DNA of 64,000 nt from an uncultured delta proteobacterium (GCA_963767275.1 CAVYDL010000001.1:257393-321392), one strand, 5' to 3'; numbered from the stretch's first letter, positions 1 through 64,000 are shown. Numbers and translations: made by a program. Notes: generated by a model not told the origin, from the sequence alone.

Positions 1-660
1 CTTTTTTGTACCAGCTTATAAACGGCTCGCGGCCGAAATAAGCCGCCACGGTTATCGCCCGGCACTGCACTTCGCCGCGTTCGAGAGCCAAGTCCTGATC
101 GGCGCCGCCGGGATAACCGGTGACGATTTGAAATTTTAAATTCAGCGTCTCTTCGAGCAGGCGCGGGAATCAAATGGCCGCTGGTGCCCACTCCCGTCGC
201 CGAACATTTCGGGCGCCTCTTTGGCCTTGCGAATGTCCTCGATGGATTTGAACGGCGCGTCGGCGCGCATGAATAACAACGTGCCGTTATGCTCCGGAGT
301 GCCGATCCAGGAAAACTTGGCCCAATCGAATTTGACTTCCTTGCCGCCGGTGAGCTGCGCCAAATAAAGCCCCGGGGCGATCGAACCGAGCGTCAGCCCA
401 TCGGGCTTGGCGACATTGTAAACGTGATTGGCCGCCACCATGGAGCCGGCTCCCGGCATATTTTGCACGACAAAGTTCGGATTGCCTGGGAGATGCTTGC
501 CCATATGGCGCGCATAAGCGCGCGCCCATAAATCATGAGTGTCGCCGGCCTGGTAGCCGACGATCAGGCGCACGGTCTTGCCTTGAAAATAGGAACTCTG
601 CGCGCCGGCGTCGGAGTGCGTCAGGAAAATGAATAACAGGATAACAGTGAGGTTTTTCAT
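1..660 (-). CDS. Bug/TctC-family periplasmic solute-binding protein. The 5' part is in frame at 142-660. An apparent frameshift lies near 170-180, and the C-terminal part continues in another frame to the window edge.
   Basis: N-terminus has a signal peptide followed by YFQGKTVRLIVGY...VVQNMPGAGSMVAANHVYNVAKPDGLTLG, the same architecture as the intact paralogs at 47478, 62124 and 38863. The reverse complement of 1-140 translates to LLEETLNLKFQIVTGYPGGADQDLALERGEVQCRAITVAAYFGREPFISW, which matches the paralogs' C-terminal TctC-like region. Confidence 0.6.
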
Positions 661-776
661 CGAAGTTAGAAAAAGCTGCGAGCGAGTCGTGGAGCGATGG
701 AATAATCAAGTGTTGCGGTTTGACAAACCCACCACTCAAAAACTTCATCAGCACCACGACTCCAATGTCAGTTGGC

Positions 777-2346
777 CTACTTTTTCGCCGGTGCCGGCTT
801 CTTGCCAATGGCGGCGAGCAAATCGCTATAAGGAACGATCCGGCCGTGGATCGGCACGATGCGGTCGACATCGATATTCAAGCGTCGGACGTTGGCCTCT
901 AGGTTAACCGAGTACGGATTGGGAACCTTGGGCGGCTCCGCTCCCGCCGCGAGCGGAGTAAACACATCGGCCTCGATCAGAAGTTTTTCCTTGCGCAAAT
1001 ATGCCATGATGATGCCATCGTGATGGGCGTTGCCGACGATCTGATAGAGCTCCACCGAGCGCGTGCCGTCGGTCAATACCATGTTGTCGCCCATGGTTTG
1101 AAACACCGGCTTTTTCTTTGACTTGGCCAAGCGATCCGGGTCGAGGTTCCAAGTATTACGGGCGGCGCGTTCGAAATACGGCCGGTTAACTTCGTGGGTA
1201 ACGATCGTGACGCCCTCGGCCGCGTAGGTACGGATTCCGGCAGCGTGATCGAAGTGATGGTGCGTGTTGACCAGATACTTGATCGGCTTGTTCGGCACCA
1301 GTTTCTTTACTTCTGCCATGACCGCCAGTTGGAGCGACGATCTCCCAGTGGGGCGCTTCGACGACGATCAAGATAATCTTTCATCTCGATCAGAACGCTG
1401 TAATGGGAGACGCCCGTGATATACCAAACCCCATCCGCCGCCTTCTCCGATTTCACCGGCATCGGGTCGTCACGAACATGGGCGGGAACTTGGATATCTA
1501 CCGGCGGATTGGCTCTGACGGCGGTAACCGTCAAATCCAAGGTCGGCTTGCCATCTTGATACTGAATGATCTTGGTCGGAAACTTAACCCCGGCAAAGTC
1601 GCGATAGGGGCCGTAATGGGTCACGACCTTGATATCGCCGACGACCGGATGGCCGTAAGATGATTCGACCCACTCGATGGCGTTCTGGTCGTTGGCGTAG
1701 GCAACCACCTTGTGTTTGCCCCGATCGGTAAATGAAATAATGGTCATCTGCCGCCCTTCGATCGTTTTCTTCGTGGCGCTCGCATTATTGGCAAACGCCG
1801 CGCGAAGTAGGCCGTGGGGCGAGATCACAATCTGATGGGCACCGGTCACTGGCCTCAAAAAGCCTCGGCTCCGTATTCTTTGCCGACCACGTTCCAGGCA
1901 GCTCGCCGCTGACGACGTAAACTGGTGTTTGCTCAGGTCCGACCGTGGCGTCTCGCCCGCCATGCGCACTGACGTCATCGCGCATCGTCCCAGCCGTGAA
2001 ATCGTAGACCCGGGTCAAGGTTTTCACGAAGAACCTCGGCCAAGGCGCGGCTGGACTCGTGCTCTCGCCAGGAATACATCGTGCCGTTGGCGGTAAACTG
2101 AAAGGTCTTGGTCGTCGACACGTCGAGAGCATCGGCGATGCGCTGAAGTTCAGTGTCCTGCGCCTCGGCGCGAAATCCCAAGAGCGCGAACAGCACGAGC
2201 GCAGCTAGGAGCTTGGTAAGCATAAACAGCCTCCTGATTTGTCGATGGAATCCTGGATCGACAACTTCATATGTCAGCCACAGGAAAGTTACAAGACAAA
2301 AAAAGACGCGAGACGCGGCCCATGCCGCGCTCGCGCCTTTGCCCAT
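777..2346 (-). pseudogene. Secreted MBL-fold metallo-hydrolase, paralog 1, broken into 4 reading frames (3 or more frameshifts near 1320-1370, 1850 and 1980-2130).
   Basis: Fragments 1975-2346 (signal peptide plus FTANG), 1785-2132, 1307-1978 and 777-1319 (HHHFDH metal motif) align collinearly with the single-frame paralog at 2358-3897. Confidence 0.6.
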
Positions 2347-2357
2347 TTACAAGGTGA

Positions 2358-3897
2358 CTACTTCGCCGGCGTCTTTTCCGTCGGGGCCTTTTCTGGCGGT
2401 GTCTTTGCCGCCGGTGCTTTTTCTGCGGGTGCTTTTTCCGGCGGTGGTTTTTTCGCCTCCGCCGGATCTTTGCCGATCGCTTTCATCAACTCGACGTACT
2501 GAACTACCGAACCATGGAGCGGTAAAATGCGCTCGACTTCGATGTTCAAGCGGCGCACGTTGGCTTCCAAGTTAACGGAGAACGGATCGGGTGTTTTGGG
2601 CACACTGCCGGGAGTGAAAGCGTCCGCTTCGATCAGCAGTTTCTCTTTGCGGAGGTACGCCATGACGATGCCATCATGGTGGGCGTTACCGACCATTTGA
2701 TAAAGCTCGACGGAACGCGTTCCATCGGTCAGCACCATATTGTCGCCCATGGCCTGGAAAACCGGCTTCTTTTTCGACTTCGCCAAACGATCGGGATTCA
2801 AGCTCCAGCTATTATTGGCAGCCCGTTCAAAAAGTGGCCGGTTAGCTTCGTGGGTCACGATGGTCACTCCGTCCGCAGCGTAGGCACGCACGCCGCCGGA
2901 GTGGTCGAAGTGATGATGGGAGTTGACCAAATACTTGATCGGCTTATTGGGCACCAGCTTCTTCACCTCGTCGATCACCGCCATCGAGCGGACATCACTG
3001 GACGGTGCTTCCACGACGATCAAATAGTCTTTCATCTCGATCAACACGGAATTATGCGAGTCGCCGCCGATAAACCAAACGCCGTCAGCGGTTTTTTCGG
3101 ACTTGACCGCCGTCGGCGTGCTGCGCACATTGGCCGGCACTTCGACATTGAAAGTCGGATTGGCGCGCACCGCCGTGACGACAACGTCCAAAGCCGGCAA
3201 GCCGTCCTGGTATTGCACGATTCGGGTGGGAAATTTGACTCCGGCAAAGTCGCGGTACGGGCCGTAGTTGGTCACGACTTTCATGTCGCCCACCACCGGA
3301 TGGCCGTAGCTCGACTCGATGCGCTCGATGGCATTCTGATCGTTGGCATAGGCGACGATCTTGCGCTTGCCCTGATCGGTAAACGAGACCACCGTCATCT
3401 CCCGCCCGTCGATCTTTTTCTTGGTTACGGCAGCATTGCTGGCAAACGCAGCCCGGACCACTCCGTGCGGCGAAGTCGCCAGGTCATGCGCCCGGGCGCT
3501 GGCCTCGTGGGGCCGGGCCGGCGTGTTTTTGCCGGCCTCATTCCAGGCGAGATCGCCGGCCGACCAAAGTTATGCTTTGCTGATCGCCCTCGAGCGGCTG
3601 ACCGCCGCCTCCGCTCGGAGGGTTCTCCCCCTGCGTGCGGACCATTTGTTGGCGCATGGCTCCAGCGGTGAAGTCGTACATGCGCGTCAAACTTTTTACG
3701 TAATATCTCGGATATGCCGCCATCGGGCTGGTCGATTGCCCGACCTGCCACATCTTGCCGTTAGCGGTGAACTGAAACGTTTTCGTCGTCGATACGTCTA
3801 ACGCGTCGGCGATCTGCTGGAGCGCCGTGTCCGCCGCCTCGGCTCTAAAACCACAAAGAAGCACCAACGCGAGCGCAGTAACAAACCTGTTTAACAT
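2358..3897 (-). CDS. Secreted MBL-fold metallo-hydrolase, paralog 2 (signal peptide, N-domain and HxHxDH domain), with one apparent -1/+1 shift near 3545-3555 and a C-terminal PEKAP-repeat tail.
   Basis: ORF 3538-3897 gives the signal peptide and N-domain. The frame of 2358-3461 stays open upstream as far as 3580 and carries the SHHHFDHSGG motif. Deleting one base in ggccggcg rejoins the two frames (LVGGDLAWNE). The C-terminus is KKPPPEKAPAEKAPAAKTPPEKAPTEKTPAK. Confidence 0.65.
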
Positions 3898-3956: not shown

Positions 3957-4586
3957 TTATCCGATGAGCTTGGCCAGTGTCAATGTCTTTGCCGGCCTTT
4001 CATGCTCGACGTCTAATCCTTGAAGCGACCGATCCATACGCGCGAAAGCTTGAAGAAACTTCTTCACATGTTGACCGGTGTTGTCGTCAGTGAGCTTGCC
4101 GCTGGCATCGAATAGCGGCGCCGCGGAAGGAATTTTGATCTCCGGCTGGGACATGACATGGGTGTCGGTGAAGACAAACGATTGGCGCAGCGCATGCTGG
4201 CAACGAATCGTCCCGCCCAGCCCAGGAGAGCAGCCCATCAGCGCCGCCGGCTTGCGGTTGAGCACGCACTTGCCGCTCGGCCGGGACGCCCAGTCGATGG
4301 CGTTTTTTAATACCCCGGGCACACCGTAATTATATTCCGGCGAAACGATCAGCAGCGCGTCGGCAGCGGCGATAAACGCTTTCATAGCCGCCACCGGTTC
4401 CGGGTCGCCTTTGACGAATACATCGTCGTTGTACGGCGGGATATCACCCAGCCGGGTAAAAATCTGGACCTCCATCCCCGCCGGCGCCAGCTCCGCGGCC
4501 GCTCGCAGCAATCCTTTGTTTAGCGAAGCCTCGCGCAAACTCCCACAAATTCCGGCAATCCGTAGAGCCATCCGACCTCCAGGCAA
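3957..4586 (-). CDS. NADPH-dependent FMN reductase (ChrR/YieF/SsuE-like flavoprotein); probable true start at 4571.
   Basis: MALRIAGICGSLREASLNKGLL...IPPYNDD...AADALLIVSPEYNYGVPGVLKNAIDWASRP is the typical NADPH-dependent FMN reductase fold signature. Confidence 0.8.
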   Translation of the reverse strand: MPGGRMALRIAGICGSLREASLNKGLLRAAAELAPAGMEVQIFTRLGDIPPYNDDVFVKGDPEPVAAMKAFIAAADALLIVSPEYNYGVPGVLKNAIDWASRPSGKCVLNRKPAALMGCSPGLGGTIRCQHALRQSFVFTDTHVMSQPEIKIPSAAPLFDASGKLTDDNTGQHVKKFLQAFARMDRSLQGLDVEHERPAKTLTLAKLIG

Positions 4587-4646: not shown

Positions 4647-4790
4647 GTTCAAAAGTTCCAGGGTTCAAGGTTCAAGGTCGGAATTCAAGGTCACCGCGCC
4701 CGCCGGTCCGATTGAACCCTTGAACTTTGAACAACGTCGAAACCTAAACGATTGGACATTGGAACGATTGGAACGAGTTCAGGACTTTTG
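4647..4790. repeat. Intergenic array of tandem GTTCAA/TTGAAC hexamers (inverted halves, so potentially hairpin-forming).
   Basis: gttcaaggttcaaggtcggaattcaaggtc ... gaacccttgaactttgaacaacg ... ttggaacgattggaacg. Confidence 0.7.
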
Positions 4791-4791
4791 A

Positions 4792-7321: not shown

Positions 7322-7324
7322 GAA

Positions 7325-13494: not shown

Positions 13495-14477
13495 ATGAGT
13501 AGAAAATTCTGGCCGCTTGTCTTTGCGCTCTACTCTTGACCGCAAGCGTTCCGGTCCAGGCACAGCAGCCAAAGAGGATCCCGCGAGTGGGGTATCTCGC
13601 GGCCGTTTCTGCTTCCGCTGACGCGCCTCGGCTGGAGGCGTTTCGCCAAGGGCTGCGTGACTTTGGCTATATTGAGGGCAAGAACATTTTTGTTGACTAC
13701 CGACATCAAAGCCGCAGCTTCGAGCGCCTTCCCGACCTCGCCGCCGAGTTGATCGCTCTGAAAATCGACGTGCTCGTCGCAGTCACGACGAATGCGGCTC
13801 TCGCTGCCAAGAAGGCTACCACGACCGTCCCATCGTTTTTATGGGAGTGACCGATCCGATTACCGCTGGGTTGGTCGAGAGTCTGGCGCGACCCGGCGGA
13901 AACAGTACTGGGGTTACCAACATGGCGGCGATTTTGACCGGTAAACGACTGGAGTTATTGAAAGAGGCCATTCCCAAGGTGCGTCGTGTTGCCGTCCTGT
14001 GGGACCCTCAGGCCCCGGGCTCGACACCACAATGGAACGAAAGCCAGGAGCCGGCCCGGGCGCAGGGCCTGCAACTTCATTCAATGCAGGTAAGCAGCGC
14101 CGACAAATACGAGGCCGCTTTCAAAGAAGCCGTCAAGGCACGCAGCACCGCTGTCTGGATCACACTGAACCCTTTGGCCAATTCTAACCAAAAATTGCTC
14201 GCGGCGCTGGCCGTCAGTCATCGCTTGCCATCGATATGTGCGCGCGCAGATTACGCGGAAAATGGTTGTCTAATCGCCTATGGACCCGGTTACACTACCG
14301 AGGGTAAAGACGGAGCGCGCTACGTCGACAAGATCTTGAAGGGCGTGAAGCCTTCACGAGATTCCAGTGGAGCAGCCGATGAAATTCGAGCTCCTGGTTA
14401 ATTTGAAGACCGCCAAGCAGATCGGCGTCACGGTTCCGCCCTTGGTGCTTTATCGGGCCGATAAGCTGCTGAAGTAA
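13495..14477 (+). pseudogene. ABC_sub_bind-type (PF04392-like) periplasmic substrate-binding protein, broken by 3 or more frameshifts (near 13510, 13850 and 14380).
   Basis: MSRKFWPLVF (frame a), then LTASVPVQAQQPKRIPRVGYL...IEGKNIFVDYR...LKIDVLVAVTTNAALAAKKATTTVP (frame b), then GVTDPITAGLVESLARPGGNSTGV...CLIAYGPGY...YVDKILKGVKP (frame c), then FELLVNLKTAKQIGVTVPPLVLYRADKLLK* (frame d). Confidence 0.6.
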
Positions 14478-19569: not shown

Positions 19570-20572
19570 ATGAAATTCGGCATCTTCATTTTCGGCGACA
19601 ATCATCCTGAGCTCGGCCGCTCCAATCAAAAATATTACGAAGAAGTATTGACCATGGCCGAGTGGGCCGAGGAGTTGGGCTTCGACTCGTTCTGGTTGGG
19701 CGAGCATCATCTTTACTGGTACGGCACCTGCGTTTCGCCGCCGATGATCATCGCCGCCCTCGGACAGCGCACCAAACGCATTCGCTTGGGCCCGGCCATC
19801 GCCGTGCCGTCATTTCACAACCCGCTCATCGTCGCCGAAGAGTACGCCCTGGCCGACAACCTGTGCAACGGCCGTTTGGAGTTCGCCCTCGGCAGCGGTT
19901 TCTCGCCGGTGGAGTTTCAACAGTTCGGCATGGGCGTGGAGGAAGCCAAAGAAAAGTTCTGGGAAGGCACCGAGATCATCTTCAAAGCCTGGCAAGGCGA
20001 GACATTTTCCTACCATGGCAAGCATTACAACTTCGATAACATCTCGCTTTACATGCAGCCGCTGCAAAAGCCGATGCCGCCGACCTGGCTCGCCGCCTCC
20101 AGCGACGAGACCCTGATCAAAGCCGGCGCGATGGGCCTGCCGATGATGGGCATCCCGTTCGCGCGCTCGCATGATCTCGCCGACGTAAAGGTGAAAAACG
20201 ATCTCTACACCGGAGCGTTTGCCAAGGCGGGCCACAAGAACACGCCGGAGATCATGGTCGCCATGCATTTTTATCTGCACGACAACGAACAAGCCGCCGT
20301 CGACGGCGCACGGCCTTATTTCGAGCGCGCGATTTCGTTTCACCCGACCCACCGCCGCCCCGGTTCGAAGATTCCGCAATTCGACAACATCAAGCAACAA
20401 CGCACTGGCGCTGTTCACGACGCCGGAAGATACCGTTGCCATCCTGCGCGAATACGAAAAGACCGGCGTCACCCATGTCATCGCCATGGTCAACTTCGGC
20501 GGCGTGCCGATGGGCGACGTGCGACGCACCCTGGAGCTAATGTCGAAGGAAGTCTTGCCGAAGTTTAAATAG
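19570..20572 (+). CDS. LLM-class (luciferase-like) flavin-dependent oxidoreductase; apparent frameshift near 20395-20410.
   Basis: MKFGIFIFGDNHP...FDSFWLGEHH...RIRLGPAIAVPSFHNPL, then continues in a second frame ...ALALFTTPEDTVAILREYEKTGVTHVIAMVNFGGVPMGDVRRTLELMSKEVLPKF. Confidence 0.7.
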
Positions 20573-20620: not shown

Positions 20621-21151
20621 TTGTCGAAAATCGTTGCCGTAACTGGTAAATCATTAGAGTCGCTTACAGTAGCGGCCGGGAAGAAACTATGCGGACTCGA
20701 CAAACACTGCATCGGCGCAATCATCGGCTTGGCAATTATGCTGGCGCCGTCACCGTCGCTCCATGCCAACGAGCCCTCGCCCGTGGGCCTATGGAAAACC
20801 ATCGACGATAGTTCGGGCCAGCCCAAGGGTTTGGTGCGCATTCGCGAAGCGAACGGCCGGTTTGAGGGCAAGATCGAACAGATCTTTCCCAAGCCGGGCG
20901 AAGATCCGGCACCCAAGTGCGATAAGTGCGATGGCGCGAGGAAAAACCAGCCGGTCCTCGGCATGACGATACTCTGGGGCCTAACCAAACAGGCCGCCGA
21001 CTACCAAGGCGGCGAGATTCTCGACCCGGAGAACGGCAAAATTTACCGCGCCAAGATGACACTGCTCGACGGCGGCAAGAAGCTCGAAGTGCGCGGCTTC
21101 ATCGGCGTGTCGCTATTTGGCCGCAGCCAAATCTGGCTGCGGGAAGAATAA
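20621..21151 (+). CDS. DUF2147 domain protein (secreted); the true start is probably internal, near the signal peptide IGAIIGLAIMLAPSPSLHA.
   Basis: GLWKTIDDSSGQPKGLVRI...GKIEQIF...CDKCDGARKNQPVLGMTILWGL...GGEILDPENGKIYRAKMTLLDGGKKLEVRGFIG...SQIWLR matches DUF2147 along its full length. Confidence 0.8.
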   Translation: MSKIVAVTGKSLESLTVAAGKKLCGLDKHCIGAIIGLAIMLAPSPSLHANEPSPVGLWKTIDDSSGQPKGLVRIREANGRFEGKIEQIFPKPGEDPAPKCDKCDGARKNQPVLGMTILWGLTKQAADYQGGEILDPENGKIYRAKMTLLDGGKKLEVRGFIGVSLFGRSQIWLREE

Positions 21152-21200: not shown

Positions 21201-22659
21201 ATGACCGAAGTTTATTTTCAAGACACCACCATCCGCGACGGCGCGCAAAGCCTGTGGGCATACAATATCCGCACCGGGATGATGGCGCCGATCTGCGCCC
21301 AACTCGACGAGGCCGGCTTCGAAGCCATCGAACTCGGCGGTCCCATCGAAATGCCCAAGTGCGTCAAAGAACTGCGCGAAGATCCCTGGGAGCGCTACCG
21401 TCTGATTATTCCCAAATTCAAACGCACGCCGTTGCGCTTGGTGCATGGCTCACGCAGCGGCTTTGCCATTTATCCGGACGCCTTGCATCAACTCTTCGAT
21501 ACCTGCATGGCCAACGTCGGCGTCAGCGAAGTGCGCATCTCGGATTCATGGAACGATGCCGCGGATTGGGCCTGGCGCGTCAAACAGGCCAAGCACGCCG
21601 GCTTGAAACCGATTATCAATTTGATCTACACCGTGTCGCCGCGCCACACCGACGAATATTACGCCGCGAAAATTCACGAAGCCAAAGCCCTCGACGTCTA
21701 CCGGATCATATTCAAGGACCCCGGCGGGATCTTGACGCCGGAGCGCACCAGGACCGCGGTGCCGGCGATCCTCAAAGCCGCCGGCGATATGACGGTGGAG
21801 CTGCACACCCACTGCACCACCGGCCTCGGCACGCTGTGCTGCCTGGAGGCGATCAAAGCCGGCATGGTGCATATCAACACGGCGATTCCGCCGCTCGCCG
21901 ATGGCTCGGGAAATCCTTCCCTGTTCAATGTCGCCATGAACGCGCGCGCTCTGGGTTATAAAACCATGATCGACGAAGCGCCGCTGCGCGAAGCTTCCAA
22001 GTTTCTCACCGCCTGCGCCAGACAAGACAATCTGCCCATCGGCAAAACGCCCGAATACGACTACGCGCAGTACGTCCATCAAATCCCCGGCGGCATGATT
22101 TCCAACCTGCGCCATCAATTGAGCCGCGTCGGCATGGACGACAAGATCGCTCAGACTTTAGAGGAAGCCGCCCAGGTGCGCGCCGATTTCGGTTATCCGA
22201 TCATGGTCACGCCGCTGTCGCAGTTCGTCGGCAGCCAAGCCGCCATCAATGTAATTGTCGGCGAGCGTTACAAACAGGTCACCGATCAGACCATCGAATA
22301 CGCCATGGGCATCTGGGGCAAGGAAGGCGCCGCAGTTCATGGACCAGAACGTCAAAGAAAAAATACTCAATCGCCCGCGCGCCAAAGAGATCGCCGGCCG
22401 CCCCCACCCCACCGACACCCTTGAGGAGCTGCGCAAAAAGTATGGCGGCAAGGACGACGAAGAACTCTTGTTGCGATTTTTTTCCAGCAAAGAGGACGTC
22501 GACCGCATGTATGCCGCCGGCCCGGCGCGGACCTATTCCAGCGGCAGTAATCCGCTGGTCAATCTCGTCGGCGAGTTGTCGAAACAAAAAGACCGCTCTA
22601 GCGTGTTCATTCAACGCCCCGGCTTAACCTTGCGCATGCAACGGCGCAGCGCAGCCTGA
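21201..22659 (+). CDS. Carboxyltransferase-domain protein (pyruvate carboxylase subunit B / oxaloacetate decarboxylase alpha / transcarboxylase 5S-like, no biotinyl domain); apparent frameshift near 22320-22340.
   Basis: FQDTTIRDGAQSL (HMGL-like) ... VELHTHCTTGLGTLCCLEAIKAGMVHINTAI (PYC_OADA), then the frame shifts to ...KEKILNRPRAKEIAGRPHPTD... Confidence 0.7.
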
Positions 22660-22771: not shown

Positions 22772-23301
22772 ATGGCACGCGTATCGTTAATCGGCGAAGC
22801 CGATCATCCCGAGCTCGCCGACAGTCTATCGCCAAAATCAAAGGCGCCCGCGGCGGGCGGCTGATCAACGTCTATCGCTTGATGCTGCATAGTCCGACGC
22901 TGGCCAATGCCTGGTTCGAATTCAATCAAGCCGTGCGCTACGGCACCGAGATCGACGGCCAGTGCCGCGAGATCGCGGTCATTCGCGTGGCGCTATTGAA
23001 CAATGTCGAGTACGTCCAACGCGCCCATGGACCGGCCTACGCACTGAAAGAAGGCTTGACGCCCGAGCAGGTCACCGCCATTGCCGACTGGCAACCGTCG
23101 AAGCTATTCAACGACAAGCAGCGCGCCCTGCTTGCCTACACCGACGCCATGACGCGCGAAATCGAGGTACCGGACAGCCTGTTCGCCGAAGTGCGCCAAC
23201 ACTTCAACGAACGCCAAACCGTCGAACTGACCATGCTCATCGGTACCTACAACATGTTCACAAGAGTTTTACAGGCACTGAGAATCGACCCGGAACCCTG
23301 A
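22772..23301 (+). CDS. Carboxymuconolactone decarboxylase (AhpD-like) family protein; apparent 1-nt deletion near 22822.
   Basis: MARVSLIGEADHPELAD, then after a frame change SIAKIKGARGGRLINVYRLMLHSPTLANAWFEF...REIAVIRVALLNNVEYVQRAH (CMD family). RBS gaggt upstream of the ATG at 22772. Confidence 0.65.
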
Positions 23302-23394: not shown

Positions 23395-24473
23395 ATGATT
23401 AAATTCGTCGTCGAAAACGACACCTTCCTGCGCTTGATTCAAGTCGTCCTCGATCCGTCGGCATCCGCAGAACGAATGGAAGCCTTCGCGCACTTTTGCT
23501 TGCACGATTTGCCGGATTTCCGCGGCTGGTGCGACAAAATCCGCGCCCAGGCGGAAAATCTTTTTCCCGCCGATGTTCGCCTGGTCGACAGCCAGGACGA
23601 GTTATTGACGCATTTGCCCAACGCCACGGTCGCCGTCGTTGAAGAGCTTTCTTTCGGAGCGCAAGAAGTTGCCGCGCGCGGGCAAGAACCTCCGATTCGT
23701 TCAGAAGTACGGCTTCACGACGCGCAACATCGACCAAGCCGCTTGTGACCGCGCCGGTGCAAAGGTGTTAACCATCCGCCGCCGGGCAAACATCTCGACC
23801 GCGGAACAAGGCTTGATGCTCATGCTCGCGCTGGCGCGCCAAGTGACGCAGAACGCCAATCTGATTAGCAACGAACAACTCAGCAATGCCGGCTACCAGC
23901 CGACGACCTACAATCGCCGGCACACGCCCAACGGCAACTGGGCGCGCATCCCCGGCATGGTTACGCTTTATCACGCGCCAACTCGGCATCGTCGGTCTCG
24001 GCGAGATCGGCAGGGAACTGGCTTTGCGCGCCATCGCCCTCGGCATGCGCATCGTCTATCATCAGCGCACGCGCTTGCCCGCAGCAGTCGAAGAGCAATA
24101 TCAGGCGACGTACGTGAGCCTAGACGAACTGCTTGCCGGCTCGGACTTCATCAGCCTGCACTTGCCGCGCAGTCCGGCGACCGTCAACTTCATCGGTGCA
24201 GATGAGTTATCGGTCGTCAAGCCCGGCGCATTCCTAATCAACGTCTCGCAACCGAACTTGGTCGAACGCCACGCACTGCAACGCGCCCTGGAATCGCGCC
24301 GTCTCGCCGGATTCGGTCTCGACACGTTCTACGAAGAACCGGGCGACGCCAACGACCCGCTGATCCAATTCCCCAACGTCATCGTCACCCCCCACATGGG
24401 CGGGTCACCGCGCTGGAACTCGCTCGACGACATCGAGGAAGTGATCGTCAACCTCGGCCGCTTGCTCGCCTGA
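23395..24473 (+). CDS. D-isomer-specific 2-hydroxyacid dehydrogenase (NAD-binding); two apparent frameshifts (near 23650-23700 and 23940-23960).
   Basis: Three collinear frames. The last carries GIVGLGEIGRELALRA (Rossmann) ... FISLHLPRSPATVNFIG ... NVIVTPHMGG. Confidence 0.65.
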
Positions 24474-27427: not shown

Positions 27428-27836
27428 ATGGACATCACACTGGCAACAAATACCGACAATCCGATTCTCCAGTTTCGGAACGTGAGTCGTTCCTCGGGTG
27501 GTTCCGGATACGGAGCAGAGCTGCTTGTTCGATCTAGAGACTTCAGCGTGGAGTTCCCGTTTTACTTTGAGGTCGAACCTATGCGGGAGTTTATTGCTAA
27601 CCTGGACGAAATGGACAAGAACCTTGAAGGGGAAGGCTGTACTAAACCCAATGTATGAAGATGATTTTATCGAATTTGAGATAGACGAAAGTACCGGGCA
27701 TGTCGAAGTCCGCGGCGAAATATTCGAGCATTCTGAAATGCCACAGAGTTTGACGTTTGCGTTCCAAACAGATCAAACCTGTTTGGCTCCCCTGGTCCAA
27801 GAGCTAAAGAAATGGCAACAAATGGCCGCCAGTTAA
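27428..27836 (+). CDS. Hypothetical protein in an AT-richer islet (about 48% GC); apparent frameshift near 27630-27650.
   Basis: Two overlapping frames (27428-27658, 27498-27836) that join into one protein of about 135 aa; no recognisable domain. Confidence 0.4.
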
Positions 27837-35734: not shown

Positions 35735-36746
35735 TTAATTCGGCAACCAGCACACCGCCGCGATCTCGCTCAGCTCTCTGCGCAGCTTCGTCCACGACGC
35801 GCCGCTGTCATCGCTGCGGTAGAGATAACCGTAGCGGCTCGCGGCAAACATAACCTTTGGGTCGTCGGAATTGGTCGCGAACGTCCACATCGTCGAGTTG
35901 GGTTCCTGGGGCAGCGGCAAGAGCTTCCAGCTCTTACAGAAATCATCGCTTTGCGCGATTGCGCCTGAGGTTCCCGGCGTGAAGTCGCCGAAGCTCACCA
36001 TGATTTTTTTCGGATTGGCTGGGTCGACGGCAATGCCGCGCAGATAGTTTTCTTTGCGCGGATACTCCCACGGCAAACACTTCTGCATGTCGCGCGGCTC
36101 CCAGCTCTTGCCATTATCCGTGCTCGCATATATCTCCCGGTTGGCCATGATGAATGCCGTCTTGGGCGGGCCGGCGGTGACCGCAACGTTGTGAATATCG
36201 CGCCGCCCGGTCACCTCGACGATATTCCAGGTGTCGCCGCCGTCGCTGCTGTGACGGGCGCCGTCCACTTCGAGACCCGCCCAGATATGATTGGGCTCGA
36301 CAGGATCGACGGCGATGCCGGTGAACCTCGGCGTGCCCACCGCCTCACATTCCGTCGCCACTTCCACCGGCCGCTTGTCGAAGCTGCGGCCGCCATCCTT
36401 CGAACGAAAGAGCATCGCCGGCAGTCGGCGTGCCGGTGCCGACAAAAATGTTATCCGGATTCACCGGATCGATGCCGATCGCCCAGACATAGTGCGGATT
36501 GAGCGCCGAGTCGAGGTACTGCCAATTGGCGCCGCCGTCGGCGCTGCGATAAAGCCCGCGCTCGGTACCGGCAAAGAGAATATTGTGCTGCTTCGGATTC
36601 ATCGCGATGCAGCGCACCGAAGCCTCGTAAGCAAATCCCCGCCGCGGCCCGATGCGCGCCCAAGTCTGGCCATTGTCTTCGCTGCGCATGATGCTTTGTC
36701 CGATAGTTCCGACAACGATAGTTACGTCTCGCATATTTCCTCCCAA
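35735..36746 (-). CDS. BNR/Asp-box repeat protein (Ycf48-like/sialidase-like beta-propeller); apparent frameshift near 36350-36440.
   Basis: Seven S-x-D-x-G-x-T/S-W boxes (SEDNGQTW, SADGGANW, SKDGGRSF, SSDGGDTW, STDNGKSW, SDDFCKSW, SDDSGASW) spread across two frames. Confidence 0.65.
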
Positions 36747-36775: not shown

Positions 36776-37757
36776 CTAGATGTTGACCCGATGCATATCC
36801 TTGGTCCGCGGTCCCGCCGCCACTCCCGGCGGAAAGATTGCATCGAGCCGGGCTAAATCTTCTTTGGTTAATTTAATCTCCGTCGCTTTGATGTTCTCTT
36901 CCAAATGGGCCCGCGTCTTATTGCTGGGGATCGGAATCACACCGCTGCCCTGAGCCATCAACCACGCCAGCGCCAGCTGCGCCGGCGTGCAATGTTTCTC
37001 CCGCGCCAGCTCTTCGAAGCGCGCCAGCAGAGCCAGATTCTTCGCCAGATTGTCGCCTTGGAATCGCGGATGGTTGATCCGGCCGTCGCCTTCGCTCATG
37101 TCTTTGGCATCATGCACGGCGCCGCCGAAAAAGCCTCGGCCCAGCGGCGAGTACGCCATAAAGCCCATGTCGTTTTCGCGGCACGCCTGGAGGTTGCCGC
37201 CCTTCGGGATCCCGCGACCACAGCGAATATTCCATCTGCAATGACACTATCGGATGAACCTTGCGCGCGCGCCGGATCGAGTTGGCGCTCGCTTCCGAAA
37301 GGCCGATATAACGCGTCAGACCGCGCTCGACCAACTTTGCCATCGCGCCCACCGACTCCTCAACCGGAATATCCGGATCTACCCGCGACATGCAGAATAC
37401 ATCAAGAGCGTCGATCCCCAACCGCTTGACGCTTTGCTCGCAATTCTGGGTTAGATATTCCGGCGTGCTGCCGCTGCGATTGCCGGCGGCGTCCGGCGCC
37501 CGTGGGCTGCCGGATTTGGAGTGAATCACGATGCGCTCGCGCCGCCCCTGCAGCGCCTTGTTGATCAACTCATGGTTGTGACCCTGGCCGTAGCTCGCCG
37601 AGGTATCGAGAAAGTTGATGCCGAGATCGAATGCCTTGTGCAACGTCGCGATCGATTCGTTATCGTCCGCCGGCCCATAGGCGCCAGACATGCTCATGCA
37701 GCCCAAAGCCAAGCGCGAGACTTTGAATTCCGTCGAGCCGAATTGAACGTAATCCAT
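36776..37757 (-). CDS. Aldo/keto reductase; apparent frameshift near 37110-37170.
   Basis: FGSTEFKVSRLALGCMSMSG...LGINFLDTSASYG...IGLSEAS, then a second frame GFMAYSPLGRGFF...ALAWLMAQGSGVIPIPSNKTRAHLEEN. Confidence 0.7.
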
Positions 37758-37812: not shown

Positions 37813-38863
37813 CTATTTGCCCAACAACTTCTTCATCCGTTCGATCACTTCAGTGTCTTTGGTCATCACTTCCTTGGCGAGCCGATCGAGCTCCTCGCCC
37901 GAAGTGTATTCGATGTCGATGCGGCGCCGCTTCGCGTCGGCCAAGAGTTCCGGATCATTGAGCGTGCGCATGAAGGATTCGCGCAGGATCTTTACGTACT
38001 CGGGCGGCGTCGCCGGCGGCAGCACATAGGGTCGGCCGAAAGAATTGGAAGCGATCAACAAGCTCGCCAGCTTCTTGATCTGCTCCGAGCGCTTTGAACT
38101 CATCGAGCAGCTCATAGACTGTCGGCACGTCGGCGAGGCGCGCATCGCGCTTGCGATGGCTCTGCACCACAGCGCGGGCAAAGCCGGTCTTGCGCCAATT
38201 GGCGTAGAGATCGCCCGTGAACCAACCGGCGATGGTGAAGGAGCGGCACTGCACTTCGTTGCGCTCCACCGCCAGATCGATTTCCGGTCCGCCCGGATAC
38301 CCGGTGACGACATGGAACTTCGTGCCGATACCGTCGTTCAATAGCGTCGGCAGATAGTGGCTGGTTGTGCCGGTGCCGGTCGAGCCGCACTTGGGACCTT
38401 CGGCAGCCTTGCGCACGTCAGCCACAGTCTTGAACGGCGCGTCGCCGCGCATGTACATCAAATCTTCAGAGCGATCCGGGCTGCCGACGTAAATATATTT
38501 CGACCAATCAAACTGGACATCTTTGTTGCCGCCCAGTTGATTGAAGTACAACGCCGCGTTGACGGTGCCGAACGTCAAGCCGTCGGGCTTGGCCACCGAG
38601 TAAATATAGTTCGCGCCGACAATGTTGCCGCCGCCCGGCATGTTTTGCACGACCACTTCCGGTTTTCCCGGAATGTGCCTGCCGATATACTGCCCCACCA
38701 ATCGGCCATAGAGGTCGTAGTTACTGCCCGCCGTGCTGCTGACGATCAGCCGAACCGTCTTGCCTTGATAATAAGGCGTCTGCGCGTGCAACTCGATCGT
38801 CCACAACAAAACCACTGGAAGCGAAGCCAGAAGCGCTCTCATTGCAGTCTCCTTATGATTCAC
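37813..38863 (-). CDS. Bug/TctC-family periplasmic solute-binding protein; apparent frameshift near 38075-38095.
   Basis: YYQGKTVRLIVSSTAGSNYD...VVVQNMPGGGNIVGANYIYSVAKPDGLTFG...LADVPTVYELLDEFK, then a frame change to ...FGRPYVLPPATPPEYVKIL...EYTSGEELDRLAKEVM; collinear with the intact paralog at 62124. Confidence 0.65.
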
Positions 38864-39141: not shown

Positions 39142-40159
39142 ATGCGCAATCGTTTGTTAGTCTCGTTTTTCGGACTCGCTCTCGCGCTATCCGTGCCGCT
39201 GCGCGCCCAATCGCTGGCTGCTGCCGAGAAACTCGATAAGGTTCGCTTCACCTACGCCCCGCTGTCCGCCAGTGGATTTCTCTGGTTCATCGCCAAAGAC
39301 GCCGGCTATTTCGAGAAAAACCGCCTCGACGTCGACATGTATTTCGAAGGCGCATCGCCGATCATGGTGCAGTCGATTCTCGCGGGCGAGAATCAGCTCG
39401 CCGGCGGCTTGGGGCCCACCGTAGTCACCAACGTCTTACAGGGAGGAGATGTCATTCCCGTCGCCTGTATCACGCACACGTTTACCACCCCCATGTATGT
39501 CCAACCGTCGATCACCAGCTTGCAGCAACTCCGCGGCAAAAAAGTCGGGGTAAGCCGTATCGGTGCCGTATCGCACCTGACCGCCGATTCGATTCTGCGC
39601 CGTGCCCGAGTCGGCGATGTAACGATCATCCAAACCGGTGGCATTCCTGAATCCATGGCGGCGATCATGACCGGCAACCTCGATGGCGCCATGGTCAACC
39701 CGCCGAACAACATAATTCTTAGAGAAAAAGGCTTCCGCGAGATCGTCGGCGCGAAACAACTCAAAGAATTGAACCTGCGTTTTCCCGAGAACGGCGTCAT
39801 GGCCAAGCGCACCTGGGCCGAGAAAAATTCCGACGTCGTCAAAAGATTTATCAAATCCATCGCTGAAGGCTTGAAGCGCATGCATGACGATAAAGACTTT
39901 GCGATCAAGACTCTCGGTAAATACACCAAGGTCACCGACGCGAAATCGCTCGAAGAAAGCTATCGCTGGGGCATCGATAGCTTTTTCAAGGATTTCAAAA
40001 CCTCACCCGACGGCGATGCGGCTCATGGTCGACCAGCTGGCCTCCTCGCGCATGATTGATCCGAACCTCGCGCAAAAAACCCCGCTCACGGCCTACTATG
40101 AAAATCGCTACGTCGAGGAGCTGGAGCGGGAGGGATTCTTCAAGAAGCTGTGGCAGTAA
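39142..40159 (+). CDS. NMT1-like ABC substrate-binding protein; apparent frameshift near 40000-40030.
   Basis: RBS aaggagaacc 5 nt before the ATG at 39142. Signal peptide, then KVRFTYAPLSASGFLWFIAKDAGYFEKNRLDV..., and the C-terminus resumes in a second frame ...NLAQKTPLTAYYENRYVEELEREGFFKKLWQ. Confidence 0.7.
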
Positions 40160-45561: not shown

Positions 45562-46416
45562 CTATTTTACTTCGTAGAGAAAAGGCTTTTTCAGCATCCA
45601 GTTGACGATCTGCTCGACCGTCTCGGATTCCTTGCCGAGAAAACCATGCTGGCTGCGCGCTTCGCAGGGCGTCGACTGCGGCGGCAAACCGCCCCACACG
45701 GTGATCAACGGATACTTTTCGGAATAGCGCGCGGCGTCGCCGTAGGGCGTGTAACGGCATTGATCGCTGACATGGTGTGCAAACAAGAGCGGGATTTGAA
45801 TCGTCGCGAAGTCGAATCGGCTGAGGCCGGGGCCGGGCTCGTTGCTGTTTCGCCCGACCTCGCGAAACATCGTCGCCGTGAGCACGGCGCCGGCGATTCT
45901 TGGACCGAAACGGGCGCCGAGCGCCGCCGCCGATATGGTGCCGCGGCTGGTGCCGATGAGAAACACAGCCACGCCGGGGAAGCGCTTATTGAGATCGGCG
46001 ACTACGGCGGAGATATCCGTGAAGTGATCGCCGCCGAGGCGAAACTCATCGCTCATGCCCCAGCCGCTTTGCAGGTCCGAGGGCGCGTCGAGGATGGCCG
46101 CGATGACGCCGCGCTTGATGAACTCGGAACGGCTGCGGACCAGAAAATTGCCGCCGGCAAACTTCGGCTGGCCGCCTTCGCTGCGCAGCTGAATCAAGCC
46201 GCCGGAGCCGGGAAACAAGACGGCAATCGCTTGCAGCTGTTTCGGCGAGCTGGTGAGAAAATAGGACTGGGTCACGTTGGCGCGCGTCGGCAAGGTGACA
46301 ATTTCCTGGGCGCCAACGGACATCACAAAGACTGGCAACCCAGCAGGCAACGACAATGCGATTAAGGTGCACCCATGAACACGCGATTGAAACGTTACTT
46401 CTTGACGACCTTCCAC
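45562..46416 (-). CDS. Alpha/beta hydrolase (dienelactone-hydrolase-like), secreted.
   Basis: Signal peptide; VFLIGTSRGTISAA nucleophile context. Confidence 0.6.
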   Translation of the reverse strand: MEGRQEVTFQSRVHGCTLIALSLPAGLPVFVMSVGAQEIVTLPTRANVTQSYFLTSSPKQLQAIAVLFPGSGGLIQLRSEGGQPKFAGGNFLVRSRSEFIKRGVIAAILDAPSDLQSGWGMSDEFRLGGDHFTDISAVVADLNKRFPGVAVFLIGTSRGTISAAALGARFGPRIAGAVLTATMFREVGRNSNEPGPGLSRFDFATIQIPLLFAHHVSDQCRYTPYGDAARYSEKYPLITVWGGLPPQSTPCEARSQHGFLGKESETVEQIVNWMLKKPFLYEVK

Positions 46417-47308
46417 GCCTGTTCAATATTCACCGGCAGGCGATCTTGCCCCTGCCAGTCGGCATACTCAGGCATCTTGAGCTCTTTCTTAATCTCGATC
46501 GAGAGATCATTCCCTGCGCCGCCATCTCGCCCACCCGTTTCATCAGCAAGGTGTAATAGCCTTCGTACTCGTCGAAGATTTTGGTCGTGGTCGGCTGGCC
46601 ATGGCCGGCAACGACGATTTCCGGATTAAACGACTTCATCAATTTATAACTCGCCAGCACGTCGGGGATCACCACCGACGGCCGCAGATTGATAAAAGTT
46701 CTGACGTTGGCCGCCGAGGATGCGAACAGCACGCGCTCCTTGGGCATCCATACCGCGGTGTCGGCATAACTGTGAACGTTTTTCAGATAGATCAATTCAA
46801 AGGTGCGTTCGCCGACGATTGAGAGTCATGCGATCTTTATACTCGATATGGGGCACGAATCATTTTTTCGCCCTTCAACGCCTCGCGCATCTCCGGCGAT
46901 TGCGCCGCCAGTGTCTCGGCGCGCTTGGGATTGTATTCCTTTTTCATCCCGGCTCCCGCCCCCTCGGCATTGATGATCCTCGCCGGCGGGGAAAAGACAA
47001 AATGGTTACCGGTATGATCGCTGTGGGTTTCGGTATCGATGAGAAACAAAATCGGCTTGTCGGTAACCTTTTTGATCGCCGCCAACATGTTGCGCGAGTG
47101 CAGCGGGCTGTTGCAGGCGTCGATCATCACGACGCCTTCCTCGGTCACGACAAAACTGCACGTCGTTGTACCTTGGTCTGGGCGCAAAGGTGTAAATACC
47201 ATCCTTGATCTTGTGAAACCCAGGGCCGAGGTCCTGCGCGCCCGCTGCGCCTGCCCATAAGAACACCGCGACGGCGGCCGCGCCAAGCGTACCCAGTGTC
47301 GATTTCAT
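46395..47308 (-). pseudogene. Secreted MBL-fold metallo-hydrolase broken into 4 frames.
   Basis: 47006-47308 (signal peptide plus GIYTFAP), 46837-47286 (IDACNSPLHSRNM...THSDHTGN), 46430-46795, and a C-terminal piece at 46395-46500 (...IEQAWKVVKK*). Confidence 0.55.
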
Positions 47309-56616: not shown

Positions 56617-57835
56617 TTATTTCTGCGTAACCGCCAGTTCATGCGCCCGCTTGCCTAACCGTCGCCCACCGTTCTTGGTCACGACCACGGTATCGCCCCA
56701 CTGGCAGATATATTCGCCGTCCGCCGAAATCGCCGACGGCTTGCAGATAAAAACCATGTTCTCGCGCATCGCCACCGCGAGCTGGCGCGGGCTCTTGGCG
56801 TGGGGCGTAATGATCGGTCCGTCGTCCCCCTGGCCGCGGCCATGCATGTTGAGGACGCCTTGGGCGCCCGCCGCCGGGCCCCTTTTCGGCGCGGCACTTT
56901 GCACCGCACTCCTAGTCAACTCGGCGAGCTCGCCGACGGTGACGCCGGGCTTCAGATTTTCCACCACGCGATTGAACACTTCGCGCTGTACTTTGATCAA
57001 CTCGGCCTGCACCGGATCGATCACTTCGACAAACACCGGCTGCACGCCCTGGGCCCGGTACCCGATCCACGACGCTTCGATCTCATTGATGATCGCGTCG
57101 CCGCGCTCGAGCAGCCGCATGCTCGGCCGGGTCAAGGTGCGCTTGGGATTTTTTCCGGACACCCAGAAACAGTGCACCGGCAACTCGGAACCGTTGCGCG
57201 TCATGGCGTAATGCATCGCCGCCCAGACTTCCCAATCCTTGACGCCGACTTTGGCCGCTTCGATTTCCGCTTGAATCGCCAGTTCGTTGATTTCCATTGA
57301 CTTGGTGAGCACGCCGATTTCTTCGTCGCTTTTCACATAACGCACTTCGTCGAGGATTGCCGTGGCGTCGACCAATTGCGCCTGCGGGAAGCCTTCGCGG
57401 ATCTGCTTCCAGGTGCCGTAGAAAATCGTTCCTTCCGGCGTGCGCGTGCCTTCGACCTCGCCCAGACCGGTTATGCCGATACGGCCGCGATCGATCGCCC
57501 AATTCTTTCAACCGCTCGACAATGACCTTGCCATAATTACGCCGCGCCTCGCGCACGTCGGTGACCCAGTCCTGCACCGTCGGCCAACGCGGCGCCGGCG
57601 AAGTCGCGATCGCCGTCACTTCGCCGTCAATCGGAAAAACCGCCGCGAGATCGGGTTCGCCGCCGCCGCAATGCGTCAGGTAGCGCGTGTTGGCTTGATA
57701 GTCCGCCGAATGGCCGCTGTTCTGCGGCGTGACGATGACGTCAAGATTCTGCTGGCGCATCAGCTCACGGACAGCTTGCCAACGCCGGTCCCGTTCAGCG
57801 AGTGAAAAACGCGGATAGGGATAAAGTTCTGCCAT
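56617..57835 (-). CDS. M24-family metallopeptidase (creatinase/prolidase/ectoine-hydrolase-like), paralog 1; apparent frameshift near 57480-57520.
   Basis: The N-domain frame 57083-57835 and the catalytic frame 56617-57375 align collinearly with the intact paralog at 57962-59140. Confidence 0.65.
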
Positions 57836-57869
57836 GAATTATGTTCTGAGGGTCAATGAAATATTTTTC

Positions 57870-57950
57870 TCACCACGAAGGCACGAAGAGCACAAAGTTC
57901 GGAGGTTATTTATCCGAACCCTTCGTGCCTTCGTTGGTGAACAATCCTCT
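57870..57950. repeat. CACGAAG/CTTCGTG hairpin element.
   Basis: caccacgaaggcacgaagagcacaaagttcgg ... ccgaacccttcgtgccttcgttggtgaa. Confidence 0.6.
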
Positions 57951-57961
57951 TTTTTTTGCGG

Positions 57962-62072: not shown

Positions 62073-62123
62073 AGCGCACCGCCAATGGTTACGCTGTTGC
62101 ATTTGAAGTTGTCTTAAATAATT

Positions 62124-63152
62124 TCATTGCGCCAATATCTTTTTGATCCGCTCGACCACTTCTGCCGGCTGTTCGATGACTTCTTTCGCGATCTTGGCGA
62201 GTTGCTCGCCGCTAACCGGTGTAATATCGAGTTTCTTTTGCTTCGCCTCATCGAGCAGCGCTGGATCGAGCATTGCTTTTGCAAATCCGTCACGCAATAG
62301 CTTCGTTCTATCCGGCGGCGTCGCCGGATGGGTCACCATCGGCCGGCCAAGCTCACCGGAGCCGAGCATGACGACGGCGACACGGCGGCTCAACTCCGGG
62401 GTTTTGTATTCGTTCATGAGGTCTTTGAGCAGCGGCGTATCGGGCAACTGCGGGTCTTTCTTCTCGCCGGTTTGCATGAGTATCCGCACCAGGTTGGTTT
62501 TGCGCCAGGTGTGATAGGGCTCGCGGGAAAAATATGCCTGGGTGGTGAATGACCGGCAGACGACTTCGTTGCGCTCCGTGGCGATGTCGATTTCATTGCC
62601 GCCGGCATAGCCGGTGACGATGGTGAACTTGGTCCCGAGCAGCTCTTCGAGCAGGCGCGGAATGTAATGGCCGCTGGTGCCGGTGCCGGTGGCGCCGCAC
62701 TTGGGCGGCTCCTTGGCGTTGCGAATATCCTGCATGCTCTTATACGGCGCATCGCTGCGCATATAGAGCAGATGCTCCGACTTATCCGGACTGGCGAGCC
62801 AGGTGAACTTCGTCCAGTCGAATTTGATTTCTTTGTTACCCTGGAGCTGATTGAAATAGTGCGCCGGATTGATCGACGCGATGGTCAAGCCGTCCGGCTT
62901 GGCGACGCTGTAAACATAGTTGGCCGCGACGATGCCGCCGGCCGCCGGCATGTTTTGCATGATCACATTCGGATTGCCAGGAATATGTTTGCCAATATGG
63001 TTCGCCAATAGGCGCGAATAAATATCGTAGGCCGTGCCGGTCCCCGATCCGACAATAAAATTGATAGTCTTGCCCTGATAATAGGGTGTTTGCGCGCTCG
63101 CCTCCGCGCCCGGGACTAACAGTAATACCGCCAACAAAAGCAGTCGTTTCAT
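62124..63152 (-). CDS. Bug/TctC-family periplasmic solute-binding protein, intact.
   Basis: YYQGKTINFIVGSGTGTAYD...IMQNMPAAGGIVAANYVYSVAKPDGLTIA...TGYAGGNEIDIATERNEVVCRSF...LPDTPLLKDLMNEYK...ITPVSGEQLAKIAKEV. Confidence 0.75.
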   Translation of the reverse strand: MKRLLLLAVLLLVPGAEASAQTPYYQGKTINFIVGSGTGTAYDIYSRLLANHIGKHIPGNPNVIMQNMPAAGGIVAANYVYSVAKPDGLTIASINPAHYFNQLQGNKEIKFDWTKFTWLASPDKSEHLLYMRSDAPYKSMQDIRNAKEPPKCGATGTGTSGHYIPRLLEELLGTKFTIVTGYAGGNEIDIATERNEVVCRSFTTQAYFSREPYHTWRKTNLVRILMQTGEKKDPQLPDTPLLKDLMNEYKTPELSRRVAVVMLGSGELGRPMVTHPATPPDRTKLLRDGFAKAMLDPALLDEAKQKKLDITPVSGEQLAKIAKEVIEQPAEVVERIKKILAQ

Positions 63153-63785
63153 CTCATTTTCCTTTCCATAAAAAGCTTGCCAAGTCTATTCGATCCTCGC
63201 GCCGCTACTCGTTACCATCAATTGAGTTAAATTGCCAAACCAGCCGCCGCGTCAGTCGCCAGGAGTCCCATTCAAATTCTTGCAGTCGATGAAAACGCGG
63301 TGACGCAATCGAGCCGGTTTGAACGACGGGAAGCGCCGCTGACCGCCTCGCGCTCTGGCGCCTGGCCTCCGGTTATCGTGAACAAGACAAGGATCGTTAT
63401 CAGTCGAAGACTATCGCACCGAAAGAATTTACTTCTTGTTCAAGTCGGGTCGTTTGCTGCACCGTCGCGATACCCCAATTCTCGAGCCAAGCCAACATGA
63501 TTCCTAGGACACAACAAATTCGCTCGCAGTGTCGTCGCAGCATCGAAAACTGTTCACCGTATCCAGCGGGACCCGCCTGCACCGAATGGAAAGCGCTTGC
63601 CATTGATTGACAACCCGGCCATAAATACTGTTGCCTGAGGGAGCAAGTTTTCCCGCGATAGATCGAAGATTCTCGGCTAGGTCCGATTGGCAGGAGTTTC
63701 GCCAAATGAGGTAGTTTGGCCTGTCATGACCGGTATGCAACTTGCTCCAATTCCGGCCTACTAAACTTTCACTGGGAATTTATTG

Positions 63786-64000
63786 ATGGATCATAACGAC
63801 AACTGCAAAGGATGGTTGGGCAAAGGCTCCATCGTTCTGGGGCTGGGACTACTTGTATTTGGCGCGATCTTCTACAGCACGGGTGGCGGTACGAAGACTT
63901 CGACGAAACCGGCGGCAGCGCCGCTCGATCGAAATGCGCAAAGGCCGGTGCGCATCATGAACATGGCCCTCGGCCCGATGGTATTCCTCGCCCGCGAACT
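63786..64000 (+). CDS. 5' fragment of a hypothetical membrane-anchored protein; runs off the window.
   Basis: ATG at 63786, MDHNDNCKGWLGKGSIVLGLGLLVFGAIFYSTGGG... one TM helix; open to the window end. Confidence 0.3.
   Translation, partial: MDHNDNCKGWLGKGSIVLGLGLLVFGAIFYSTGGGTKTSTKPAAAPLDRNAQRPVRIMNMALGPMVFLARE

Follow-up and report, generated by a model that had tools for sequence, protein, structure and literature searches.

Frameshifted genes in a 64-kb stretch of a deposited metagenome-assembled genome: very probably for the most part consensus errors, with one pseudogene among them

About 18 of the roughly 60 genes in a 64,000-nt stretch of an uncultured delta proteobacterium (GCA_963767275.1, CAVYDL010000001.1:257393-321392; the window hereafter, meaning the whole stretch that was analysed) are broken into pieces lying in different reading frames, and we consider it very probable that most of these frameshifts arose as errors in the consensus of the window's own assembly and not by mutation. 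The core of the finding is a set of 18 frame-breaking events that are private to the window, distributed over 13 genes, every one of which is an insertion (17 single bases and one pair of bases). One further gene, ABC_sub_bind, is a true pseudogene. The names carried by related proteins place the window in Candidatus Binatia / Binatota; its G+C content is 57-60 %, with a strong third-position (GC3) signal.

The initial annotation had listed 16 genes made of collinear pieces in different frames, and all of them hold, as proteins called on the sister assemblies align to the window in successive high-scoring segment pairs that change frame. Two genes absent from that list, FMN_red (at 4041) and DUF2147 (at 20693), are also frame-disrupted, and with them the total agrees with its estimate of about 18. 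Besides, Pfam coordinates continue across the pieces, as in ABC_sub_bind (6-83 / 81-255 / 255-291) and in a GT87 glycosyltransferase (1-50 / 57-148), and an M24 peptidase has Creatinase_N 1-85 in its upstream piece and Peptidase_M24 4-208 in its downstream piece, an order of domains also seen in its intact paralogue.

Two sister assemblies, ENA ERZ25039516 contig_266 (2.86 Mb) and ERZ25039485 contig_15981 (538 kb), both ~99 % identical to the window, provided the comparison with closely related genomes that the initial annotation had suggested, and they hold full-length open reading frames (ORFs) for the privately broken genes. A three-way alignment over 27.4 kb shows the window, contig_266 and contig_15981 to be three strains, with 126, 95 and 143 private single-nucleotide polymorphisms (SNPs), respectively (~0.3-0.5 % each), and the window shares with the sister contigs long identical stretches interspersed with divergence hot spots. 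Short Logan de Bruijn-graph contigs served as an orthogonal set, among them L006 (ERR11593888) and L009 and L013 (both ERR11593400). Contigs L002, L005 and L006 agree with the window wherever a strain-variable position was checked, window-private alleles included (L006 at 12 of 12 such positions within 33610-35124), and therefore represent the window's own haplotype. The same runs contain several close strains: L008 differs from L009, and L005 and L006 differ from contig_266. By exact-protein look-up, the fragments P0074, P0075, P0086 and P0137 are window-specific and identify the window as part of a 644,244-bp contig (NCBI and ENA) of a Candidatus Binatia MAG, and the two that belong to the TctC gene at 1-660 (P0074 and P0075) are known solely from it. 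A scan of GTDB genomes found no same-species genome (best match ~92 % nucleotide identity) and gave no help for the GT87 gene or for the MBL-fold gene MBL1, and a plasmid database queried with 20 kb of the window returned no match.

The genes with window-private insertions are the following (aa, amino acids).

1..660, minus strand: TctC, running off the window start; +1 (extra C) at 164 and at 210; the contig_266 orthologue is intact (343 aa).
2358..3897, minus strand: MBL2, MBL-fold; +1 (C) at 3560, not in contig_266; the repaired ORF has 512 aa, the length of P0077.
4011..4571, minus strand: FMN_red; +1 (C) at 4041, near the C-terminus; 185 aa once repaired, as in all cluster members listed.
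19570..20572, plus strand: LLM monooxygenase; +1 at 20403; 333 aa once repaired, with one amino-acid difference from the orthologue.
20684..21151, plus strand: DUF2147; +1 (G) at 20693, in neither sister assembly; from residue 3 onward the protein matches P0114 of contig_15981 at 100 % identity.
22772..23301, plus strand: CMD; +2 (GT) at 22824-22825; the repaired 175-aa protein is exactly P0121 of contig_15981.
23395..24473, plus strand: 2-hydroxyacid dehydrogenase; +1 (C) at 23677 and at 23974, in neither sister assembly; 358 aa once repaired.
35735..36734, minus strand: BNR/PSII_BNR-like gene; +1 (C) at 36422, not in L006, L013 or contig_15981; 332 aa once repaired.
36776..37757, minus strand: aldo-keto reductase (AKR); +1 (C) at 37200; intact in contig_15981 (326 aa), from which the repaired protein differs by one amino acid.
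37813..38842, minus strand: TctC; +1 (C) at 38090; intact in contig_15981 (342 aa), from which the repaired protein differs by one amino acid.
39142..40159, plus strand: NMT1-type solute-binding protein; +1 (G) at 40015, in neither sister assembly; 338 aa once repaired, with one amino-acid difference.
46395..47308, minus strand: MBL3, MBL-fold; five +1 at 46496, 46506, 46818, 46855 and 47183; intact in contig_266 (302 aa).

The polarity of the private events is uniform. In the three-way alignment the coding private indels of the window are all insertions (20403, 20693, 22824-5, 23677, 23974 and 40015), and its private deletions number two, both intergenic; pairwise comparisons supply the events at 164, 210, 3560, 4041, 36422, 37200, 38090, 46496, 46506, 46818, 46855 and 47183. 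Coding sequence thus holds 18 insertions versus 0 deletions (sign test, 8e-6). A massive recent pseudogenisation, in which ~18 genes would truly have been lost, mostly redundant solute-binding, MBL-fold and oxidoreductase paralogues, could draw on the fact that many of the broken genes come from families with several copies, intact ones among them lying nearby, that ABC_sub_bind is a demonstrable pseudogene and that four frameshifts are common to assemblies. However, the private set is free of deletions, nonsense codons and larger lesions, and the sister strains, which are equally diverged, show 0-2 such events over the same DNA. Together with the evidence on repair, selection and reproducibility given below, this makes the loss of so many genes very unlikely.

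Removing the inserted bases in silico restored exact orthologue lengths in ten genes (333, 175, 358, 338, 185, 302, 512, 332, 326 and 342 aa), and the repaired ORFs contain no further stops and differ from their orthologues at 0-21 amino acids; MBL3 without its five extra bases is a stop-free ORF of 302 aa. For MBL2 this agrees with the single-base repair that the initial annotation had proposed near 3550, as the extra C lies at 3560 (GCCGG[C]CGA). On the other hand, the single-base change from gaaca to gaca that it had proposed for CMD near 22822 does not exist: there is no gaaca at that place, and the two-base insertion GACA[GT]CTAT cannot be fixed by any single-base deletion. An exact look-up of the ten repaired proteins found CMD and BNR, the latter present verbatim in Logan and in ENA (P0122). 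The Pro/Glu/Lys/Ala-rich C-terminus of MBL2 also carries, relative to contig_266, a 15-bp in-frame tandem duplication (GGTGCTTTTTCTGCG, at 2413-2427), which looks like a genuine length polymorphism.

The broken genes evolved as their intact neighbours did. Their substitutions at codon positions 1/2/3 number 19/16/96 (73 % at the third position), compared with 15/10/53 in intact control genes (P = 0.64), and 88 are synonymous and 43 non-synonymous relative to the intact orthologues. This equal third-position bias indicates that the broken genes were under purifying selection throughout the divergence of the strains, so that they are unlikely to have had time to gather five frameshifts, as MBL3 would have done. 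In the same way, the five insertions of MBL3, the two of the 2-hydroxyacid dehydrogenase and the two of TctC come without other decay, which speaks against pseudogenisation.

At 36422 the insertion could be compared with orthogonal contigs: it is missing both in L006, of the window haplotype, and in L013, from a second run, and both encode an intact BNR protein. The evidence for the window haplotype at this site is that of L006. The remaining 17 private events are missing from one or two sister-strain assemblies. These data also bear on the idea that the inserted bases are real and represent alleles of a minority sub-population picked by the assembler. Close strains do co-occur in the same runs, and one +1 shared between assemblies, at 22332 in the HMGL gene described below, lies on two haplotypes separated by 17 SNPs within the gene; yet minority alleles would need about 18 independent loss-of-function insertions linked on one haplotype, and the one testable site is insertion-free on that haplotype and again in the second-run contig. 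We therefore regard this explanation as highly improbable.

The inserted bases have a characteristic composition. They are C or G in 14 of the 17 single-base events, and 9 of these 17 create a new CpG (17 % expected; P = 6e-4), whereas only 3 of 17 extend a homopolymer (45 % expected), the affected runs having just 1-3 bases. The initial annotation had read the frameshifts as the short-run signature of long-read indel error; the indel artefact stands, but the run-type signature does not, since the insertions are C/G at non-homopolymer positions. Programmed ribosomal frameshifting or phase-variable contingency loci, for which nothing speaks beyond the frame changes themselves, have a negligible probability: the shift sites show no slippery heptamers or repeat tracts, their contexts are heterogeneous, and the orthologues are single-frame in the sister strains and in relatives (>=90 % protein identity).

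Concerning the origin of the errors, we propose a scheme based on strain mixture. At least three ~99 % identical strains would co-occur in the samples, and where they differ, a mixed read signal in the consensus or polishing step could give rise to a spurious extra base, usually C or G and often forming a new CpG. The distribution of the insertions is consistent with this scheme: 12 of 13 testable insertions fall in 500-bp bins with >=2 SNPs versus contig_266 (Mann-Whitney P = 0.005, Fisher P = 0.016), and the 50 low-divergence bins hold one insertion. At 20403 the window reads CGCACTGG, contig_266 CGACTGG and contig_15981 CGCCTGG, so that the alleles of both strains stand side by side in the window; the 31-mer with the inserted base is CAAGCAACAACGCACTGGCGCTGTTCACGAC, and the insertion-free forms contain CGACTGG or CGCCTGG. 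Taken together, the concentration in strain-divergent bins, the tandem alleles and the co-occurring strains make strain collapse the most economical reading. Insertions stand beside a third codon position in 12 of 17 cases, no enrichment over the expected two-thirds.

A context effect may add to strain collapse, as two contexts seem to be repeatedly affected. Two assemblies have the change from GGCGCCC to GGCGCCGC at 22332, and contig_15981 has it independently at 42006 as well; the change from GGCATC to GGCGATC is found at 40015 and, judged by the junction, is also probable at ~57497 in the M24 gene, in two assemblies. Such repeatedly affected contexts could explain the frameshifts that are common to two assemblies in HMGL and M24. 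It is also possible, if rather unlikely, that the insertions are artefacts of another route altogether, namely context- or modification-driven basecalling or polishing errors, or low-coverage noise, with no part played by strain mixture. The identical changes in identical contexts would fit, as would the strong C/G and CpG-creating bias and the several sites that adjoin GATC or GANTC-like sequences. However, the counts are small (GGCGCC occurs 86 times in the window, about 8 of these being GGCGCCC), most occurrences of these contexts are unaffected, no motif is common to the 18 sites, and neither pure context nor coverage noise predicts the concentration in strain-divergent bins.

With regard to provenance, the closest public relatives are Flye-style contig_N contigs of Microflora Danica (MFD) long-read metagenome-assembled genomes (MAGs), and the GTDB relatives are likewise named MFD*.bin. 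From these matches we infer that the window originated in a Nanopore-only assembly of the Microflora Danica type, made with Flye and one round of Medaka, and the private events probably derive from such a Nanopore/Flye/Medaka metagenome assembly. The MFD long-read study was Nanopore-only, with Flye assembly and one Medaka round; its authors checked their catalogue for Nanopore-associated errors, and some lower-coverage MAGs had reduced coding density. Frameshifted gene calls are known for Nanopore assemblies below about 40x coverage.

The sister assemblies have private frameshifts of their own. Those of contig_266 affect SoxY (complete in the window), MBL2 and an abhydrolase, and those of contig_15981 an MFS gene (+1 at 15437) and an LLM monooxygenase. 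Over the 64 kb, private events reach ~0.3 per kb in the window's contig, the highest value, and roughly 0.1 or less in each sister. The SoxY of contig_266 is split by its own indels at window positions 7951 and 8257; in the window this gene belongs to a sulfur-oxidation cluster (6044-10276) with a Sulf_transp permease, SoxZ, SoxY, an FCSD-type flavocytochrome c sulfide dehydrogenase and a cytochrome c.

ABC_sub_bind behaves differently from the privately broken genes, and its lesions are as follows.

13495..14477, plus strand: ABC_sub_bind; -1 at ~13502 (A5 to A4), -1 at ~13827 (TT to T) and +1 at ~14355.

The three shifts that the initial annotation had counted in this gene are present, one of them directly after the ATG at 13495. 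The window, contig_266 and Logan L008 share three identical fragments of it (87, 186 and 32 aa), and contig_266 shows no indel relative to the window here; two of the fragments (186 and 32 aa) also occur in L009, of the window haplotype, and both L008 and L009 align gap-free to the window over the whole gene. In contig_15981 the gene is intact at ~13502 (A5) and ~13827 (TT) and carries the last shift only, giving pieces of 302 + 32 aa; intact relatives have 327 aa. The lesions are therefore nested, with the shift at ~14355 in all three strains and the two deletions confined to the window and contig_266, with Logan support. Because they are nested, reproducible and in part run-associated deletions, we conclude that ABC_sub_bind has genuinely decayed; it is the sole gene shown to be dead here, and ~14355 is the older lesion. 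The recovery of its lesions in Logan contigs provides a positive control of the comparison with Logan, in which the BNR lesion was not reproduced. The initial annotation had favoured long-read indel error over decay but kept true decay of redundant paralogues in view; the former is borne out by 18 events in at least 13 of the 18 broken genes and fails for ABC_sub_bind, and the latter applies to ABC_sub_bind, with the same frameshifts in four independent assemblies, but not to the private insertions, which we read as artefacts. The pseudogene is flanked by five tandem MFS paralogues (about 380-394 aa; 10455-18516), one of which is broken in contig_15981 alone.

Five further genes, with frameshifts that are shared between assemblies or poor in references, were counted neither with the private artefacts nor as pseudogenes.

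21201..22659, plus strand: HMGL/PYC_OADA carboxyltransferase; +1 (G) at 22332, GGCGCC[G]CAG, also in contig_15981.
27428..27836, plus strand: WapI-like immunity gene (called hypothetical); +1 in a G-run (GGG to GGGG) at ~27629, also in contig_266.
56617..57835, minus strand: M24 peptidase/creatinase-like gene; +1 at ~57497, GGC[G]ATC, also in contig_266.
777..2346, minus strand: MBL1, an MBL-fold hydrolase paralogue; three frame switches, frames -1/-2/-3/-2 (tblastn with MBL2-type proteins).
32085..33220, minus strand: GT87 glycosyltransferase; three frame switches, with the middle segment IRPDRMHNLRAL in a third frame.

HMGL is intact in contig_266 (485 aa), and the repaired window ORF is clean and of the same 485 aa. 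For dating the lesion by a neutral rate, the downstream SNPs are too few and the divergence is mosaic, and the window's 407-aa fragment has no record in the protein look-up. The recurrent context argues for an artefact at 22332.

For the WapI-like gene, the downstream piece corresponds to Pfam WapI positions 67-132, the contig_266 ORF ends at the same false stop, and the window fragment occurs on the window's contig alone according to the exact look-up. This gene and a DUF2442 gene lie in a variable spot (26600-27900; L011 15973-16728), where contig_15981 has beside DUF2442 a Cys-rich protein of 251 aa instead, with no Pfam match. The 252-aa M24 fragment is identical in the window and contig_266, and JGI P0147 (93 % identity) is continuous across the junction (KELGVDHGRVG). 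The P0140 cluster (M24, 56617-57375) includes at least 5 further ENA long contigs (37-218 kb) that hold fragments of 109-199 aa only, and across the clade M24 reflects either repeated assembly breakage or clade-wide decay. A look-up of the repaired M24, WapI-like and TctC proteins found none of them, which is uninformative, as Logan contigs are short.

MBL1 and GT87 have no close reference among the compared assemblies. The three shifts claimed for MBL1 by the initial annotation were recovered as three frame switches; the gene lies in a divergence hot spot, and contig_266 has an allele that is ~10 % diverged (83 of 131 differences at third codon positions), with a single shift of its own elsewhere. 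The GT87 gene lies in a strain-variable island (32064-33320) with a G+C of 0.53, where the GT87 of contig_266 is only 34-41 % identical in amino acids and where neither contig_15981 nor the more distant MAG L015 has a gene.

It is possible, though we hold it doubtful, either that, besides those of ABC_sub_bind, some of the frameshifts, a minority, are genuine (with HMGL 22332, M24 ~57497, WapI-like ~27629, GT87 and MBL1 as candidates), or that CpG-creating, non-homopolymer +1 insertions in strain-variable segments constitute a distinct and undescribed Nanopore consensus error mode. A genuine minority would mean that soil Binatia are still shedding redundant transporter and hydrolase paralogues, strain by strain.

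Several observations weigh against attributing most of the frameshifts to consensus error. Orthogonal contigs of the same haplotype covered one private site alone (36422), and the sister assemblies are different strains, so that an indel seen in the window alone might, in principle, be a true mutation of its strain. Eight of the ten repaired proteins had no exact match in the look-up, a result that is uninformative since Logan contigs are short; a look-up with the TctC neighbour of MBL3 returned contig_266 alone and no Logan contig spanning 47183. The insertions are unlike the homopolymer errors usual for Nanopore, and their proximity to SNPs is marginal (7 of 18 within 8 nt versus 3.7 expected; P = 0.057). 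Besides, +1 events are common to two assemblies at 22332, ~27629, ~57497 and ~14355, and the last of these appears real despite having the same 'C before G' look. Finally, the call is based on assembled contigs, and the Logan contigs are orthogonal to the window in their mode of assembly.

As regards the surroundings of these genes, the window is rich in periplasmic solute-binding genes (six TctC, five NMT1 and four SBP_bac), and MBL-fold hydrolases, LLM monooxygenases and alpha/beta hydrolases are also very dense in it, a density that is apparently typical of these Binatia MAGs. Two short intergenic stretches (57842-57960 and 4756-4792) are hypervariable, with many small indels and mismatches versus contig_266, and their flanking genes are 100 % identical.

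In practical terms, gene calling on these 64 kb of a deposited MAG turns about 30 % of the genes into false fragments or pseudogenes, which will distort whatever is built on the contig, be it a metabolic reconstruction, a census of pseudogenes or a count of protein families. The coordinates given above define the correction, namely the exact positions of the 18 private insertions to be removed and ABC_sub_bind to be annotated as a pseudogene. As C/G insertions outside homopolymers are missed by quality control focused on homopolymers, strain-aware or short-read polishing is needed for such MAGs.

Overall, what was found is mostly an assembly artefact plus one ordinary pseudogene, and not a biological feature, and it can be set beside three known phenomena. 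Genes split by consensus indels are known from Nanopore and other long-read assemblies, where the IDEEL test, based on full-length proteins, serves to quantify them (Sereika et al. 2022, PMC9262707). The window resembles such cases in that its ORFs lie in collinear pieces while the orthologues are full length, in that it is worse than its sister assemblies, and in that the splits can be removed in silico. It differs from classic homopolymer indels, since 14 of the 17 single-base events lie outside homopolymers and all are insertions, mostly of C/G, often creating a CpG and clustered in strain-divergent segments. Bacterial frameshift pseudogenes are matched by ABC_sub_bind, with its nested and reproducible small indels in short runs across strains and assemblies, but not by the other, privately broken genes, which show no mixed lesions, no relaxed selection and, at the one tested site, no reproducibility. 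A third parallel is with consensus artefacts of strain collapse, and microdiversity is a known problem for soil MAGs (PMC12313526). Here the likeness, which is drawn from assemblies and not from the read level and in which the SNP-adjacency test is marginal, consists of ~99 % identical strains, errors in strain-variable segments and, at one site, the alleles of two strains in tandem.

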